NCBI GenBank assembly: GCA_032249275.1
Contig: JAVVGG010000001.1
Coordinates: 1 to 44,271, forward strand
DNA: 44,271 nucleotides
DNA from: Desulfurococcales archaeon
GTDB taxonomy: Archaea; Thermoproteota; Thermoprotei_A; Sulfolobales; AG1
Reading direction: 5' to 3'
This document shows positions 11,132-35,255 of the stretch, piece after piece. How positions within the stretch are numbered: the first letter of the stretch is position 1; every line of letters starts with the position of its first letter. A program made the translations under genes and the position numbers. The notes under the pieces were generated by a model. It did no database searches. It saw only the letters and a program-made list of their open reading frames with translations, and was not told the origin of the DNA.

Positions 11132-12310
11132 CTATCTCACTATAGCAAGATCTTCTACAGTCTCTGTCTCAAGGGAGACAGGAAGGGGTCTAGGATCTGG
11201 AAGGATTCTTATAAGAGCATCCCCTCTACCCATCACAACCATGAGTTCCTCTATAGTTTCCCTATCGATTTTCAGGAATTTAGAGGCATCACTCCAGAAT
11301 CTTTTGCTTGGATTGCTAAGTGCTATTAAGAGACCCGAGTTCTCTAGAATCCTATCCCAATCATCCCCAAAATCCCTGAAGCTCTGTGTGGCTAGAAGAA
11401 CAGATAACCCATATCCCCTGGATAGCTTTACCAAGTTTAATAGCCTAGTTGAGCTCCTCCCCTTTCTAGTGAGGATCCACGCCTCATCTATCACTATAGC
11501 TCCCCCAACATATCTAGGATCTACATGCCTGGATGACATATAGTTAAGCATATCCTGAAAAACTATGTTCATCGCGTAGCTCAGCGTTTCCTCTTTTTCT
11601 TTAGAGATTTTCGAGAGTGATATAATATTTATCTCTCCTTCTACAATCTCATAGTGTCCGATCTGCTGTTTTCCACCATCTAGATAGGAGATCTCATCAA
11701 TGATCCTTGATATCATTATCCTCACATGCTCATCCTCCTGAGAAAGTTCAGAGAGTATGTTCTGCCACGTTGGAGTTGGTGTTTTTTCATATGCTCTCTT
11801 GATCGCTTTATATATTGCTGCCTGCATCTTTATATCATTAACATCGAAGGAGCTAACTATAGCTTCAAAAACCTGCCCTGCTCTAGCGCTGGGATCAATA
11901 TAGAAGGGATAAAGGGATCCCAGAGGGGTTCTAGGGACATCTATGGATCTAAACAAATATCCCCTCTTCAATAGCCTAGCTTCTATATCCCCCTTCACAT
12001 CTATAGCTAAAATGGTTGTCGAGAGAAGGGAGTGCATCTTTGTCGCGATACTTATTAAGGTCTCTGTCTTGCCGGAACCTGTTGGCCCTACAACTATTAT
12101 GTGAGGACTCATAGAGCTGTTTGGGTTCCAAAAGACATTCCTTCCACTGTTTATTATCCTGCCTATCAGGATCCCGCTTTTATGGATACCCCTTGAGTGG
12201 AGGGATGTCCTTAGAAAAGGGGAGAAATATATAGAGTGGATAGATGATGCTATGAATGGCCTGCTAATCATCTTACTGAGGATCTTTAAAAGAAGTCCTC
12301 TAGGCTCTGC
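11132..12310 (-). CDS. VirB4/HerA-FtsK-like P-loop ATPase, catalytic half (first ATG 12271; frame open upstream to 12331)
   Basis: GILIGR..SGRNVFWNP...PHIIVVGPTGSGKT (Walker A), IDVKGD, VIDEAW (Walker B) and RGYGLSVLLATQ. Confidence 0.9.
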   Translation of the reverse strand, partial: AEPRGLLLKILSKMISRPFIASSIHSIYFSPFLRTSLHSRGIHKSGILIGRIINSGRNVFWNPNSSMSPHIIVVGPTGSGKTETLISIATKMHSLLSTTILAIDVKGDIEARLLKRGYLFRSIDVPRTPLGSLYPFYIDPSARAGQVFEAIVSSFDVNDIKMQAAIYKAIKRAYEKTPTPTWQNILSELSQEDEHVRIMISRIIDEISYLDGGKQQIGHYEIVEGEINIISLSKISKEKEETLSYAMNIVFQDMLNYMSSRHVDPRYVGGAIVIDEAWILTRKGRSSTRLLNLVKLSRGYGLSVLLATQSFRDFGDDWDRILENSGLLIALSNPSKRFWSDASKFLKIDRETIEELMVVMGRGDALIRILPDPRPLPVSLETETVEDLAIVR

Positions 12311-12890
12311 GAAAAAACTCGTTAATAGCAGCTATAACCCCCACGCCTTTGAGATCCTCTGCATATATGCCTAGACCTCTAAGCTCTTCCCTTAATATTT
12401 CTATTTTGCGGGATAGCTTTTCAATTGCCTCTTCCTCTGTAGATCCTACGGCTGTTACGCCGAAGATCATGTTGATCGAGAATGGCATTTCTCCATTCAA
12501 TATCCTCTTCTTTATCCTCTTTAACCTCTCAATCTCTGTTCTTAGCTTCTCATTTGACGGATCAGATTCTAATATGATCTGCTTCACCTGTATAGTCTTT
12601 TCTATCTTAGCTATTATTTCATCAGATCTCGTGGGGAGCACTATAACTCTTAGATCTATTGGGGCGTTCTCTGCAAGTGTTCTCACATATGAATTCAGTA
12701 TCTTTCTTAGATCCCTTTCACTGAGATCCTCCGGCATGTCAACAAACTCCCTAACAATTAGAAAGCCTTTTGCAATACACCCCTTATCCCAACAGCTAAC
12801 GATTCTTCCTTTAACTAGCCTTAGATCTGGCGAACCATATAGGATCTTCGTCACATCATCCTTTATCCCTAAGATCTTCTTGATATTCAT
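12300..12890 (-). CDS. N-terminal half of the VirB4-like ATPase, probably joined to the downstream ORF by a +1 frameshift
   Basis: A coiled coil followed by GEMPFSINMIFGVTAVGSTEEEAIEKL...LREELRGLGI, resembling the segment preceding the P-loop domain of VirB4-type ATPases. Ends GAG TTT TTT CGC AGA GCC TAG. Confidence 0.7.
   Translation of the reverse strand: MNIKKILGIKDDVTKILYGSPDLRLVKGRIVSCWDKGCIAKGFLIVREFVDMPEDLSERDLRKILNSYVRTLAENAPIDLRVIVLPTRSDEIIAKIEKTIQVKQIILESDPSNEKLRTEIERLKRIKKRILNGEMPFSINMIFGVTAVGSTEEEAIEKLSRKIEILREELRGLGIYAEDLKGVGVIAAINEFFRRA
12309..12317 (-). other. Putative +1 programmed ribosomal frameshift site UUU-UUU-CGC
   Basis: Lies inside the only overlap (12300-12331) between the two ATPase frames. 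Re-pairing UUU to UUC places the ribosome in the ATPase frame. Confidence 0.6.
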
Positions 12891-15261
12891 TATATATCCT
12901 CTCCAAAACGTTATAGAGCTTATATGATGTTACATATGCTCGTCTAACAAGCTCTTCTATAGATGGAGGACTGATCAGGTATTCCCTATATGCAGCACCA
13001 TCATATATGTATAGGCGGAGAGATACGTCTACATTACATCTGTCGAGATCAATTCGATTTATTCCAGGCCTTAGATAGCCGTACCTATATAATCCTCCCA
13101 TAATACTTGTGACAATATAGCTAGCATCTTTAGCAGCCTTAAGGAAGAGGGTGCATCCCCTCCCATAAAATATATCGAAATCCCATATAGGGGATCTATC
13201 TTCATAGGATATCTCATCTACATACTTGTAGAAACCCCCCTCAGAACATCTTACCCTATCTAGTGTGCCTCGACCAGCATATCTATTTAAGCACCCCTCT
13301 AGCTCCTTAAGAGTGACATCTGTTAAGAAGCGCCATATAAAGCCTCCAGTCTCGGCAACAATTGATATCTTGGCAGGTATTTCGCATCCAGAGATATTTA
13401 GAACTATTTCGTCTTCTCCCTCCACGCTCTTTTCAAAGACCGTGTTTAGGCAGGAAAGTCTCAGCGTGACCCTCTCTACATTGAGACCCCCGATCGTGTC
13501 TATTTTCAAGTGTAATTCGCTATATCCTTCTCTATGTATAATTTCTAGCTTCGGCGTTATATCTATAGATCTACCCCTTATAAACGATCTATAGAATGCC
13601 TCTCCTTCTAATCCCCTAAAACCTGCTATCTCGAGCTCTGCCTCTTCAGCGCCTCTATCTACGCATATATCTAACTCGATGGGCGCTGTATTTCCTCTAT
13701 ATCTGAATTTTTTCTTACCAATAACCCTCTCTCCCACTTTTACCCTTGCAACATATTCATAGAGGTCATGAAACCCCTCTTTTCCCTTCACATTAATTAT
13801 AGCCTTTATATATCCAGGGGTATTGCACCCAGTATAAATTCCGCTTAATGCTGTGATCATCTCAGCCCTTACTACCTCGATCTCTGGCAGAGGTATGTTT
13901 AGCCTGGCATCTAATACCTGATCTTCTAATAGATCTTTAAGCGCTATTCTAACCTCTACACTATTTACAAGCATCTTCGGCATTATTTTAGCAATATAGA
14001 GGTCTCCATTCCTAGCGTAATTTTGAACATCTATAGGCCCTCTCAGGCTCACATCCAGAAAAGCTTTAGAACCTCTCACATATATCCCGGGCTCCTGCTC
14101 AAGCTCATCTATAAAGATCTCATCTTCTTTGTCGGGATCTACAACACCTATGAAGTAGCCTGCTATACAGAGAAGCTTATCTTGAAAGCCCCAACACGTT
14201 ATATCTTCTCTCTTCTTCAGCTCTTTCAGAACCTTTCCATCTATCGATGTGATCAGGATCCTGCCGCCTGTATTAATAACGATTCCTTTATAACCTGCTG
14301 AAACAGCTTTCACCGTGTGTTCCCGTATCTCGGGTCTAATTAAAATAGAATCCTTTATAGCTAGAATATTGCCTGATGCCAGTACTATATGAGAATCTCT
14401 GGTAAAACCTATATATGTAGGTTTCTCTGGCAGTCTCGCTATAGGTTTAAAGCTCTTTAGATCACTCTCTATAAGCCACCCGCTTTTCTCATCATATAGG
14501 AGAAGCTCCCTCCTCTCAGGTATCCATGCAACTGCCTTTGAGCTTAAAGGTGTCTCTAAATAGAGACCCTTGCCAATATATATAGAGCCCTTCCCACTAA
14601 CCTCTATGCTTGCGACTCGATGCCCCATACTACATAGGCTGGGGGATCCCTTGATATCATAGAAGGAGTAGCCTCCAAAGTCTGCTCCAAAGTAGATTCT
14701 AGTATATCCATCAGATTCATAAGCTATTAGAGAGTGTCCCTCCGCTCTTTTTAAGCAGTAAGAGCTGATATTATAGGTATATCCCTGATCAATTGCCGCC
14801 ACTCTCTTCCTAAACCCTTTCAATGACATGAGAAGCACTATTCTGTCTGTGAACGGCGCATAGCCTATAATAGATCCCACATCTATATCTCTTACGCTAA
14901 GCCTCTCCCCTAACACCTCGATCAGATGCCCCCTTTTCTTAGAAGAAGCTATAAAGGTATTCTCGCTGAGCGGAGCGATCTTGGACTTGTTTTCCAAGTT
15001 ATAGCATGTTGAATCTATACAGAGCTTGGGAATATCTGATACGACGTAAAAGATCCAAGGCTTTGTTGAGCTAGCCTTGATCCCTATCGAGGGTCTCATT
15101 ATGATATCTATATTGCCTTGCACCTCTTCGAACACTACCTCAGGGTTGATCTTAGAGGGTTTCAGTGTAAGACCATAGCTAGCTAGAAGATGCGGTATTT
15201 CTATTCTCCTCACCTCTTCCACCTTATAGCTCTTTCTGATCCTCTGGATCAAATTTACCAC
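12856..15261 (-). CDS. Large beta-rich hypothetical protein of the pilus operon (possibly UpsX-like)
   Basis: 801 aa with no evident signal peptide or TM helix, repeated short beta-strand patterns and many Cys. Overlaps both neighbours. Confidence 0.75.
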   Translation of the reverse strand: MVNLIQRIRKSYKVEEVRRIEIPHLLASYGLTLKPSKINPEVVFEEVQGNIDIIMRPSIGIKASSTKPWIFYVVSDIPKLCIDSTCYNLENKSKIAPLSENTFIASSKKRGHLIEVLGERLSVRDIDVGSIIGYAPFTDRIVLLMSLKGFRKRVAAIDQGYTYNISSYCLKRAEGHSLIAYESDGYTRIYFGADFGGYSFYDIKGSPSLCSMGHRVASIEVSGKGSIYIGKGLYLETPLSSKAVAWIPERRELLLYDEKSGWLIESDLKSFKPIARLPEKPTYIGFTRDSHIVLASGNILAIKDSILIRPEIREHTVKAVSAGYKGIVINTGGRILITSIDGKVLKELKKREDITCWGFQDKLLCIAGYFIGVVDPDKEDEIFIDELEQEPGIYVRGSKAFLDVSLRGPIDVQNYARNGDLYIAKIMPKMLVNSVEVRIALKDLLEDQVLDARLNIPLPEIEVVRAEMITALSGIYTGCNTPGYIKAIINVKGKEGFHDLYEYVARVKVGERVIGKKKFRYRGNTAPIELDICVDRGAEEAELEIAGFRGLEGEAFYRSFIRGRSIDITPKLEIIHREGYSELHLKIDTIGGLNVERVTLRLSCLNTVFEKSVEGEDEIVLNISGCEIPAKISIVAETGGFIWRFLTDVTLKELEGCLNRYAGRGTLDRVRCSEGGFYKYVDEISYEDRSPIWDFDIFYGRGCTLFLKAAKDASYIVTSIMGGLYRYGYLRPGINRIDLDRCNVDVSLRLYIYDGAAYREYLISPPSIEELVRRAYVTSYKLYNVLERIYNEYQEDLRDKG

Positions 15262-16709
15262 CTCAGAGGCATAAGCAATAAGAGAAGAATCATCGATATC
15301 CCAGGAACAAGAGTATTATAGACCTCGCCGAAGAACACCTTAGAGGATATAAGGGACGCTGCAAGCACAGAGACTGCTGATAATAGGAACATATATAGCT
15401 CCCCAACATGCATCATAGAAACAACCTGGGAGAGGAATATTGGCTGTAGAAGCGAGGATGCTAGAGGGATCGAAGATGAGAAGAGCTTGTTAACACTTTT
15501 CGAAAGTATATCTCCTATCTCATCAGAAAACCTATTAAACACATATGGATCTATTTCACCTTTCTCCATTAGAAATCTAACCGAAAGCGCTATATAGCTT
15601 AGTATCCATGGAAATGATAGCTTTATATCCCTAAGATATCTATCCATATCAAAGCCTGCTAAAGTTCTATATACCCTTACATAGCTTCCAGCTGCTTCTA
15701 AGAGTCTCTTGATCAGCCCTATATTTTTAATATAAGAGATAAATATTATTATAGAGACAAGGCCTAGAACTATTAATAATAAAGAAAAATAGATTATAAT
15801 AGATCCTCCTAGTAATAGCTGAGTTGGTGATAAGAGCTTTATATATATAATTACATAGAGACCTATAAGGGTTGAGAGAGATAATGCTTTAAGCACCATA
15901 TAGAGTCTCGACGATAACACTGAGATCTGCCTAAATGGATATGGCGTTGCTGGTATAGCTATGATTATAAGGGGCGTCGCTATAGTAATCATAATAGCTG
16001 TTGAGATCGCTATATAGCTACCAACTACAGAAGAAATACCTAGAATCAGCATCGGCGCCGTCGTCATAATCATTACGGCTAGCAGACCTCCCTGAGCAGA
16101 AAGATCTATTATACGAGAGATCTGCCTTGAAGACTCTTTGATCATCTCCGCCCCCATAGATCTTAGACTCTCAACCCCCACGCCCTGGGCTATGCCAGCG
16201 ATATAGCTACGAAATATCCTTTTAACAGCTCTCGGCATGCCTGCGATACTTTCTAAAGCATCGTATATGCTTATATATTTAGATATGTTGATCAACCTCT
16301 TTGATACGCTTGAGAAGTATTTAAAAACCCGTCCTTCATTATCATTAGCGGCTATAAATGTTAGAACCTCTATTAATTCAGTTCCTGTTTTAGCTGTGAC
16401 TGATGCCATAAACACTAGATATGGGAGCTCCTCAGTGAGTCCTTTCCTTCTTTCAAGCGATTTCGAGATCCTCTCTACTATCCTATAGCTAGATAGTAGG
16501 GTTCCACCCATAGCTATCAAAAGGGCTAGTTCAAATCTATAGTGTATGTTTATAAGAGTTAAAGCTAAGACTGATGCTACTATAGAAGCTAGAGATCCTA
16601 TTAGAGCTACTCTATTCTCAGCTTTAAGCAATATATAGTCTCTATAGCTAGAAATCGAGAGTGAGATAAAATCAATATATTTTCTTTTGATATCAGCTAG
16701 AAGCCCCAC
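15255..16709 (-). CDS. Type IV pilus membrane platform protein (TadC/UpsF/ArlJ-like)
   Basis: Polytopic, with a cytoplasmic EELPYLVFMASVTAKTG segment typical of TadC/GspF domains. Directly follows the secretion ATPase. Confidence 0.8.
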   Translation of the reverse strand: MGLLADIKRKYIDFISLSISSYRDYILLKAENRVALIGSLASIVASVLALTLINIHYRFELALLIAMGGTLLSSYRIVERISKSLERRKGLTEELPYLVFMASVTAKTGTELIEVLTFIAANDNEGRVFKYFSSVSKRLINISKYISIYDALESIAGMPRAVKRIFRSYIAGIAQGVGVESLRSMGAEMIKESSRQISRIIDLSAQGGLLAVMIMTTAPMLILGISSVVGSYIAISTAIMITIATPLIIIAIPATPYPFRQISVLSSRLYMVLKALSLSTLIGLYVIIYIKLLSPTQLLLGGSIIIYFSLLLIVLGLVSIIIFISYIKNIGLIKRLLEAAGSYVRVYRTLAGFDMDRYLRDIKLSFPWILSYIALSVRFLMEKGEIDPYVFNRFSDEIGDILSKSVNKLFSSSIPLASSLLQPIFLSQVVSMMHVGELYMFLLSAVSVLAASLISSKVFFGEVYNTLVPGISMILLLLLMPLRW

Positions 16710-18200: not shown

Positions 18201-18653
18201 TTAAATCCCCGTTGCCTTTATCATCTTCTGAGTATTCGTAGCAAGTGATCTTACAGTTACAACCGCACCATTAACATTTGAAGCTCCGCTGATACTTATC
18301 ATAAGAGTTTTGCTTGACTTGGGATCTATAGTTATTGGAAGACTTCCTGATAGGGTTGAATTAAAATTCTGTAACATAACAGACCCATTGCTTGTTGTAT
18401 ACACGACTGATACGCCTTCAACATTTATAGGATCGTTACCATTGTTAGTAACGGTGATACTCACTAATATTGTATTCGTATTGATAGGCTTAGCGTTGTA
18501 GGTAACTGCAATAGATTCCAACTCAGGCATTTTGGCTATCTGTCCTGTTAACCATGCCTGGAGGATAAACATTACTGGAATCGCTATTGCAACAGCTATC
18601 ATAATCACTACTAATTCGCTTAAACCTTTTACATGTCTTTTTCCACCACTCAT
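18201..18653 (-). CDS. Archaeal type IV pilin (class III signal peptide)
   Basis: MSGGKRHVKG|LSELVVIMIAVAIAIPVMFIL: a basic leader, a PibD-type KG|LS site and a hydrophobic helix, followed by a beta-rich domain with N-x-S/T sequons. Alternative ATGs at 18665 and 18659. Confidence 0.88.
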   Translation of the reverse strand: MSGGKRHVKGLSELVVIMIAVAIAIPVMFILQAWLTGQIAKMPELESIAVTYNAKPINTNTILVSITVTNNGNDPINVEGVSVVYTTSNGSVMLQNFNSTLSGSLPITIDPKSSKTLMISISGASNVNGAVVTVRSLATNTQKMIKATGI

Positions 18654-18708: not shown

Positions 18709-18819
18709 ATTCTTGCCAGTTAATAATCACCGATAATTAAGATCTCTTATAGCTGGATCCTTCATTAGGGCTATAAGAGATTGGGAGATCTATGCTAAGA
18801 TTTTTCGTGTATTAGTGAT

Positions 18820-19195
18820 ATGGCTCCCTCACCGTTCTGGATGGCGGGTTTCCACTGTTGGGGTCTTGGGCGTTATTCTTTCTAAGGGGGTTGGGTTTTA
18901 ACCCGTTGTGGGTTACTATGTAGCTTGCTATCTTCTTGATCTTTACTTTGTAGCCGATTCTCCTAGTTATGTTGCTTGCCGCATTTAGATCAGCATTGAT
19001 TCTCCTTTTAGTTTTTCTGCATATATATAGCCCTCTATATATTCTTCCATTGCTGTGAATTTCGCTGCATAGTGAGCACTCCATGCTTGTGTAGCCCTCT
19101 AGAGCTAGGTATAGCTCTATCCCATATTCTTCCAGCACCTCTCCAAGCCTTCTGGCTATCCCTCTAAACCATCATATATTATAGTTGATGATCTC
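18820..19195 (-). pseudogene. tnpB: TnpB C-terminal fragment with IS right end
   Basis: RRLGEVLEEYGI..EGYTSMECSLC...RGLYIC...INADLNAASNI (zinc ribbon plus RuvC-III), followed by a right-end hairpin at 18820-18880. The N-terminal part is missing. Confidence 0.85.
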
Positions 19196-35102: not shown

Positions 35103-35255
35103 ATGAAGAGGTTCGAAGAAGAGGAGTGGGAGGAAGAAGAGGAGGAAGAGCTAGAGGAAGAAGAAGAATGGGAAGAAGAGGAGCTAGAGGAAGAAGAGGA
35201 GTGGGAGGAAGAAGAGTTCGAAGAGGAGGAGGAAGAAGAGGAGGAAGAGTGGTAA
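35103..35255 (+). CDS. Small hyper-acidic protein (50 aa, 39 Glu), not in the ORF track
   Basis: MKRFEEEEWEEEEEEELEEEEEWEEEELEEEEEWEEEEFEEEEEEEEEEW*. The GAA/GAG variation falls at synonymous third positions in this frame. Confidence 0.75.
   Translation: MKRFEEEEWEEEEEEELEEEEEWEEEELEEEEEWEEEEFEEEEEEEEEEW

Follow-up and report, generated by a model that had tools for sequence, protein, structure and literature searches.

A probable programmed +1 ribosomal frameshift in cedB, a predicted DNA-import ATPase gene of a Desulfurococcales archaeon and its relatives

This study concerns cedB in a Desulfurococcales archaeon (NCBI GenBank assembly GCA_032249275.1), where the gene lies on the minus strand of a 44,271-nucleotide stretch of contig JAVVGG010000001.1, the whole of which is referred to below as the window. 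To judge from their sequences, two overlapping reading frames of the window are the N-terminal and the ATPase halves of one orthologue of CedB, a VirB4-like predicted DNA-import ATPase. A programmed +1 ribosomal frameshift at a UUU-CGC site very probably joins the two. The split itself, a deeply conserved feature, is best explained, on comparison with related genomes, as part of a wider recoding pattern, one that would affect both Ced ATPases, CedB and its paralogue CedD, at their domain boundary.

At its 3′ end the zero-frame open reading frame (ORF) of 196 amino acids (aa) reads GAG TTT TTT CGC AGA GCC TAG, and it shares 32 nucleotides (nt) with the +1 frame (Table 1). Counted from GCA 12310, the +1 frame contributes 392 codons, which specify a linker and a VirB4/HerA-type ATPase domain; joined by a +1 shift, the frames yield 193 + 392 = 585 aa in a sequence that aligns across its junction with uninterrupted orthologues. 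The ORF end, the place of the T6-CGC string, the brevity of the overlap and the 585-aa product had all been described in the original prediction, which was drawn from the letters of the window, and all stand. So does its statement that the +1 frame has no ATG, GTG or TTG before 12271 and that no Shine-Dalgarno (SD)-like run adjoins this ATG: the nearest GAGGA lies about 25 nt upstream, and ATG 12271 is probably an internal codon. Arginine codons of the CGN type, which had seemed rare by eye, make up 4.8% of Arg codons in the 1447 long ORFs of the genome. Within these ORFs an in-frame TTT-TTT-CGN occurs a single time, in cedB, which is more than chance, and no other TTT-CG split gene was found among them. 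Five other ORF ends of the source genome (contigs C76, C62, C39, C5 and C27) carry TTT-Y near the stop and a long open +1 frame (136-584 codons); the first start of that frame lies 9-57 nt on, and these are probably ordinary overlaps.

Table 1. Features of the cedB locus and of related genes in the window (strand and positions refer to the whole stretch; E, expectation value of the family match)
Feature	Position	Strand	Remarks
Zero-frame ORF, 196 aa (22 kDa)	12300..12890	minus	CedB N-terminal domain, the predicted short product; NF041017 positions 75-206, E 4e-15
Shift site TTT TTT CGC	12309..12317	minus	T6 at 12317-12312, CGC at 12311-12309; candidate from the sequence and from TTT-YG in 39/39 split loci
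+1 frame, 399 open codons	11132..12331	minus	Opens past TAG 12334-12332; NF041017 positions 232-588, E 4e-79
First ATG/GTG/TTG of the +1 frame (ATG)	12269..12271	minus	Not conserved; starts scattered across loci
Walker A, GPTGSGKT	12065..12088	minus	Present in 35/35 split loci tested
Walker B, IVIDEAW	11477..11497	minus	D, E and W invariant in 17 split loci aligned
801-aa protein	12856..15261	minus	Without Pfam, NCBIfam or Atlas match
484-aa hydrophobic protein	15255..16709	minus	No family match; role suggested by position
Type IV pilus assembly ATPase, 501 aa	16693..18198	minus	PF00437, E 2e-17; FlaI model, E 5e-52, below cut-off
Likely pilin, 154 aa	18201..18665	minus	Weak UpsA match, E 1.6e-4, below cut-off; gene order conserved
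cedA-like channel gene, 451 aa	38856..40211	minus	NF041796, E 2e-27, below cut-off; 26 kb from cedB
cedA1 pilin gene, 92 aa	40229..40507	minus	NF041797, 123.6 bits (cut-off 100)

A sequencing or homopolymer error, an intron or an RNA-level joint can be set aside as the origin of the break. Contigs from two DNA and six RNA runs span the site continuously and show no indel or joint there, and the same break recurs in 12 of 13 other genomes of the source genome's family (f1 in our numbering of families), the thirteenth, 63% complete, being without a match. Two of the findings that would have refuted the original prediction, a T5 run in the reads and a strain-specific lesion with uninterrupted close homologues, are thus not what is seen.

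The two halves match consecutive segments of the CedB model NF041017. They score 266.8 and 55.5 bits and do not reach its curated cut-off of 700 bits; uninterrupted orthologues in families f3 and f4 (205-325 bits) also fall below it, and all four f13 genes tested pass it (810-841 bits), so that f13 is likely the Sulfolobus family. The split gene is the best of five CedB-model matches in its genome, which holds no better candidate. In a tree of 39 chosen rows, f1, f3, f4 and f5 form a clade (support 97/97) that is sister to f13, with f7 and f12 as outgroup; an earlier tree, which excluded rows under 480 aa and nine near-duplicate or distant rows, placed this clade as sister to f13 too. Structure models and sequence together show both a VirB4-like N-domain and an ATPase domain with Walker A and B motifs in the cedB product. 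The AlphaFold model of the 196-aa protein is a compact domain with a predicted local distance difference test (pLDDT) score of 81, and its top structural match, a modest one, is the N-terminal region of TrwK/VirB4 (7o42_A; Z 9.0, root-mean-square deviation 5.0, 169 residues aligned). TrwK/VirB4 is likewise the best structural match for the model of an uninterrupted orthologue, in which the shift site corresponds to the final residue of the N-domain's last helix, ahead of a linker whose pLDDT is below 50. The VirB4-like identity first proposed holds against relatives and is refined to that of a CedB orthologue below the NCBIfam cut-off. The database record of an uncultured Desulfurococcaceae archaeon contains an uninterrupted cedB frame of 606 codons.

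The break is a fixed feature of two families. Our survey covered 325 genomes of the order, 132 of which gave a match to the ATPase half, and 39 of 39 orthologous split loci are interrupted in the identical +1 phase: 13 in f1, where every genome with the gene has it split, and 26 in f5, where all are split. The codon that follows the in-frame TTT is CGN in 33 of them, TGA in three and TGT in three, and never AGR. In every one of the first 35 loci to be aligned the overlap contains a single in-frame TTT-YG, always at alignment columns 330-331, and the four loci retrieved after the motif had been defined fit it as well. Every variant retains UUY one base on, as re-pairing of tRNA-Phe would demand, and the zero-frame stop follows 0-9 codons past the site. 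The +1 shift at UUU-CGN proposed from a single genome is thus borne out by these relatives. The codon preceding the motif, which would occupy the E site, is TTT in 14 loci, AAT in 24 and AAA in one. A scan of named genome and metagenome collections found no split locus.

Had the gene undergone fission, the N-domain and the ATPase would be two proteins, the second relying for its start on translational coupling or on a non-standard codon. The break does sit at a domain boundary, where fission is tolerated, and in 33 of the 39 split loci an ATG, GTG or TTG lies downstream of the point where the +1 frame opens and ahead of the first ATPase strand. However, these starts range from −23 to +38 codons with no position in common, and in 6 of the 39 there is none before the first ATPase strand. 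Fission, moreover, would neither fix the +1 phase in all 39 loci nor retain TTT-YG, and it gives no account of the same motif, or of a selected +1 tail, in the uninterrupted genes described below; we regard it as very improbable.

Slippage of RNA polymerase, which would skip one U in the T run and leave an mRNA to be read normally, is in our estimate very improbable. Dropping one U would give the same protein, the T6 run is present in f1, f3, f4 and f13, and transcripts that form a minority are invisible in contigs. Yet the run is only T4 in 21 of the split loci, T5 in three and T3 in one, conservation reaches past the run to the next codon (CGN, TGA or TGT), and no indel appears in the contigs of the six RNA runs. 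A −2 shift, in which the P-site tRNA-Phe would move back two bases within T6 and add one extra Phe, is more improbable still: it arrives in the same frame and could re-pair perfectly on the T6 of f1, but in the 25 of the 39 split loci where AAT or AAA precedes TTT the −2 pairing would be mismatched, and on a +1 slip none of the 39 would mispair. Just as improbable as the −2 shift is that the motif is a pause site, a U-tract terminator or a DNA element in genes that are broken or misassembled. The motif does occur in uninterrupted genes too, and the genomes are mostly metagenome assemblies, but the break is found in 39 genomes, including the single-contig genome G017, and is bridged in eight runs, all 35 loci tested have an open ATPase frame with Walker A, and no better CedB match exists in the source genome. 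ATPase frames of the split loci have remained intact at about 20-90% identity. Among the variants of the site, AATTTTC alone fits a DNA-damage promoter element with the form ANTTTC; a promoter scan of bacterial type gave counts at chance level.

A second line of evidence for a programmed frameshift comes from genes that are not split. The string TTT TTT CGN stands at the same position in 35 of 87 uninterrupted orthologues (26/40 in f3, 1/1 in f4 and 8/46 in f13), and four of the eight f13 genes that carry it are in genomes assembled in one or two contigs. Across 96 uninterrupted genes, Phe-Phe-Arg at the site is encoded with TTT-CGN in 34 of 34 cases, while Phe-Arg elsewhere is TTT-CGN in 7 of 136; one extra Phe-Phe-Arg, 21 codons downstream of the site in G221, reads TTC TTC AGA. 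The 26/26 counts at the P-site and Arg columns are circular, the group having been picked by the motif, and were not used. Together with the split loci, the TTT-YG or TTT TTT CGN site is held in 74 cedB loci across five families. Two uninterrupted cedB genes (L133 and L149, genomes G297 and G301) have an in-frame TTT TTC GA, which is the T6-CG string in a shifted phase and may be a reverted split or a plain substitution.

In the uninterrupted genes a +1 slip would terminate after 1-16 codons, and in f3 these tails could be compared with the sequence beyond them (19 genes in five groups; G223, G227 and G206 were excluded for length differences). Within the tail, variable columns amount to 31/60 at zero-frame position 1 and 17/60 at position 3, whereas in the 12 codons past the +1 stop they amount to 17/60 and 41/60 (Fisher p 4e-4, calculated on kin that are not independent). 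By this measure the f3 +1 tail varies like coding sequence. The +1 stop, for its part, is mostly fixed in place within a genus while switching among TAG, TAA and TGA. The split and uninterrupted layouts would therefore yield the same two products, and the idea that recoding sets the ratio of a short to a long product, put forward in the original prediction, gains support from orthologues that keep the site with reversed polarity.

Mechanistically, the P-site tRNA-Phe would most probably slip from UUU (12314-12312) to UUC (12313-12311), and the rare Arg codon CGC in the A site would impose the pause that drives the slip. Without a slip, translation would end in a short product comprising only the N-domain, and with it a full-length ATPase would be made, recoding setting the ratio of the two. 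In uninterrupted lineages the same site would work in reverse and produce a minor short form with a tail of 1-16 aa. If the rate is low, split lineages would have little of the ATPase and uninterrupted ones little of the short form. A nascent-peptide or stress-dependent stimulator is possible.

It is important to point out that several observations weigh against a programmed frameshift or limit what can be concluded from the evidence for it. TTT-CGN is not avoided in the genome (24 seen, 25 expected), so that selection against the bare motif is not strong and the efficiency may be only a few per cent. Neither a 3′ RNA structure (mean z −0.4 and 0.0) nor an SD-like stimulator was found at the cedB sites, SD pairing being no better than background. 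Genes for tRNA-Arg(GCG), (TCG) and (CCG) are all present, which excludes missing CGN tRNAs as the cause of a pause, and loss of wyosine genes as the cause of tRNA-Phe slippage is excluded as well, both families tested being present in five of five genomes; with these tRNAs and the two wyosine-pathway genes in place, codon rarity is the one ground on which we infer slow decoding of CGC. The RNA data consist of contigs, in which minority variants are dropped and from which transcription is not provable. The motif is absent from 14 of 40 uninterrupted loci in f3, 38 of 46 in f13 and all 25 more distant loci (some perhaps paralogues), which implies that the short form is not needed everywhere. Some start codon does lie near the junction in the 33 split loci mentioned above, and related genomes are non-independent samples. 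Finally, the trees lend little support to either a single or a repeated origin of the split (40 in the earlier tree, 52/46 in the 39-row tree).

The partner gene cedD shows a like design in other lineages, its break lying at the N-domain/ATPase boundary. It is uninterrupted in every genome with a match in f1 (12/12), f5 (24/24) and f13 (43/43), and split in 39 of 39 genomes of f3, in the one genome of f4 and in most genomes of f10; the junctions read are those of 31 of 39 genomes in f3 and 36 of 47 in f10. In f3, 29 loci shift −1 (28 at C_CCU_UUH, one at A_AAU_UUU) and two shift +1 without TTT; in f10, 29 shift −1 at U_UUU_UU(C/A) or A_AAU_UUU, three shift +1 at TTT TTT CGN, and four uninterrupted genes retain TTT TTT CGN, so that this motif appears in both polarities in seven genomes. 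The f4 gene has a +1 shift at TTT TTT CTT. Canonical heptamers are found in 58 of 58 cedD loci that shift −1, against a background of 0.0018 per codon and a median overlap of 12 codons; no 3′ RNA structure signal was detected at the cedD shift sites. In uninterrupted cedD genes any heptamer is present in the region in 8 of 44, at scattered places and not as a shared one, and none of 14 such genes from f13, f11 and f8 has TTT-CGN. No case of both cedB and cedD being split in one genome was met among the genomes examined, a pattern that is less sure in f10, where CedB orthologues are weakly detected (7/63, with an N-domain profile).

Several individual cedD loci deserve mention. In L236 and L237 (G209 and G208) a +1 shift is needed, with no TTT in the 17-nt overlap (TGC CCC AGT GTT TAG), possibly at a proline-codon +1 site, and in both genomes the motif has been lost from cedB. 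In L239 (G230) a −1 shift is needed at A AAT TTT CGC, which contains the AAT TTT CGN string that f5 cedB uses for +1. The source genome's own cedD (L195, contig C33) has T_TTT_TTT 53 codons before Walker A, a feature that is not shared with 11 relatives.

What the short form might do is suggested by the prediction that the N-domains of CedB and CedD together equal the VirB4 N-domain (bioRxiv 10.1101/2024.09.27.615246): a short form would complete its partner's scaffold without bringing an ATPase. There is about an even chance, in our view, that it is a working subunit which gives CedD the CedB half of a VirB4-type N-terminal scaffold with no second ATPase, recoding then setting the stoichiometry of the Ced motor. 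Somewhat more tentatively, with the odds slightly against it, the Ced motors could form a recoding-controlled pair, in which, across five families, cedB or cedD is cut at the domain boundary by a programmed frameshift, either +1 at UUU-CGN or −1 at a canonical heptamer, the site endures as its polarity flips, and the short product plus the partner's full chain makes a single-ATPase VirB4-like unit.

The closest known parallel is the influenza A PA-X site UCC_UUU_CGU, which shifts +1 at about 1% efficiency and whose type, according to the article, remained to be seen in cellular genes (PMC3498833). As in PA-X, P-site UUU would re-pair to UUC while a CGN codon occupies the A site, and the +1 frame is open (33 of 39 split loci). 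Unlike PA-X, cedB is a cellular archaeal gene with UUU, AAU or AAA instead of UCC in the E site, its A-site variants include UGA and UGU, and both polarities occur. Sites of the UUU_CGN type reportedly exist in other RNA viruses.

For the pairing of a short and a long product, bacterial dnaX is the better comparison. Its gamma and tau forms are short and long ATPase forms with a common N terminus, and in some bacteria the polarity seems reversed, the long form being the frameshift product (PMC5009743). The gene architecture of cedB, as known from the genes, fits short and long forms in both polarities. The dnaX shift, however, is −1 at A_AAA_AAG and is aided by an SD and a stem-loop, whereas in cedB the shift would be +1, no stimulator was found, and it is the ATPase domain itself that the short form would be missing. 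The paralogue cedD is built along the same lines as cedB, with heptamers other than A_AAA_AAG and without a structure signal. In Escherichia coli copA a frameshift at a domain boundary frees a stand-alone N-terminal domain of a transport ATPase (PMC5009743); there the shift is −1 and, in the section consulted, one polarity is described, which sets it apart from cedB. Bacterial prfB (release factor 2) uses a +1 slip onto UUU at a UGA stop (PMC5009743), and three cedB loci resemble it in having TTT TGA, but cedB has no SD stimulator and no apparent release-factor feedback, and a sense codon takes the place of the stop in most loci (stop in 3/39).

Recoding in archaea is sparsely recorded. The cases on record are −1 frameshifts in fucA1 and magnesium chelatase and those in haloarchaeal virus tail genes, of which the HSTV-2 tail gene is a probable +1 (PMC8211752, PMC5009743); in the sections consulted, the cellular cases given by these articles are −1, and no conserved +1 frameshift of a cellular archaeal gene is named. 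The parts of the CedB and CedD accounts available to us mention no frameshift (PMC9905601; bioRxiv 10.1101/2024.09.27.615246), and none was found in the parts of the GeneTack survey's main text that were consulted (PMC3711429), although its supplements and those of the CedD preprint could contain one. No report of cedB or cedD recoding was found in the literature searched, a search that most subscription journals lay outside.

The cedA-like, cedA1 and cedD-like genes are all present in the source genome, the last on a separate contig (C33) and with a match below cut-off; the match of the 451-aa cedA-like protein to the 259-position CedA model is confined to residues 1-187, which leaves a long extra region. 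The orthologous ATPase, the co-occurrence of cedA, cedA1 and cedD and the TrwK/VirB4 fold are shared with the Ced system of Sulfolobales as far as the accounts consulted describe it (PMC9905601; bioRxiv 10.1101/2024.09.27.615246). Unlike Sulfolobales CedB, the proteins of f1, f3, f4 and f5 have no predicted N-terminal membrane helix (by hydropathy 0/13 in f1, 0/22 in f5, 0/39 in f3 and none in f4, compared with 45/46 in f13), and the gene ends a type IV pilus cluster. A pilin gene opens the putative operon that ends in cedB, and the 484-aa protein is, from its position, likely a TadC-like pilus platform. Where the flanking sequence of f1, f3 and f4 loci is long enough, the order is pilin, pilus ATPase, membrane protein, ~800-aa gene, cedB; in most f5 loci the ~800-aa gene is all that is left of this upstream cluster. 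A gene of ~740-830 aa is the immediate upstream neighbour of cedB in f1, f3, f4 and f5, also at loci that no longer have the pilus genes. For membership in a Ups pilus operon the family-level support is the one weak UpsA match.

Three further observations concern the window itself. Just upstream of the pilin gene, positions 18812-19138 encode a 108-aa TnpB/Cas12f-like zinc-ribbon fragment (PF07282), likely a transposon remnant. Near the pilin start, at 18640-18643, contigs of run X13 have three-base insertions, which indicate a strain difference there. At 35103-35255, a 50-codon ORF that is nearly all Glu with spaced Trp, Phe and Leu is probably the acidic tail of a longer frame.

If the Ced genes are indeed a recoding-controlled pair, cedB would provide an example of a conserved +1 frameshift among the cellular genes of archaea, and the subunit composition of a type IV secretion-like machine for DNA import would be determined by frameshifting. 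Recoding at the boundary in both Ced genes suggests that the motor holds ATPase-less subunits in a set ratio, and this reading is testable because eight f13 genes carry the site in an uninterrupted gene. A +1 site that is conserved in 74 loci, and whose A-site codon naturally varies between rare Arg, stop and Cys, is a test set for reading-frame maintenance in archaea. In more than 100 genomes of the order, automatic gene prediction will report cedB or cedD as a broken gene or as a pair of genes.

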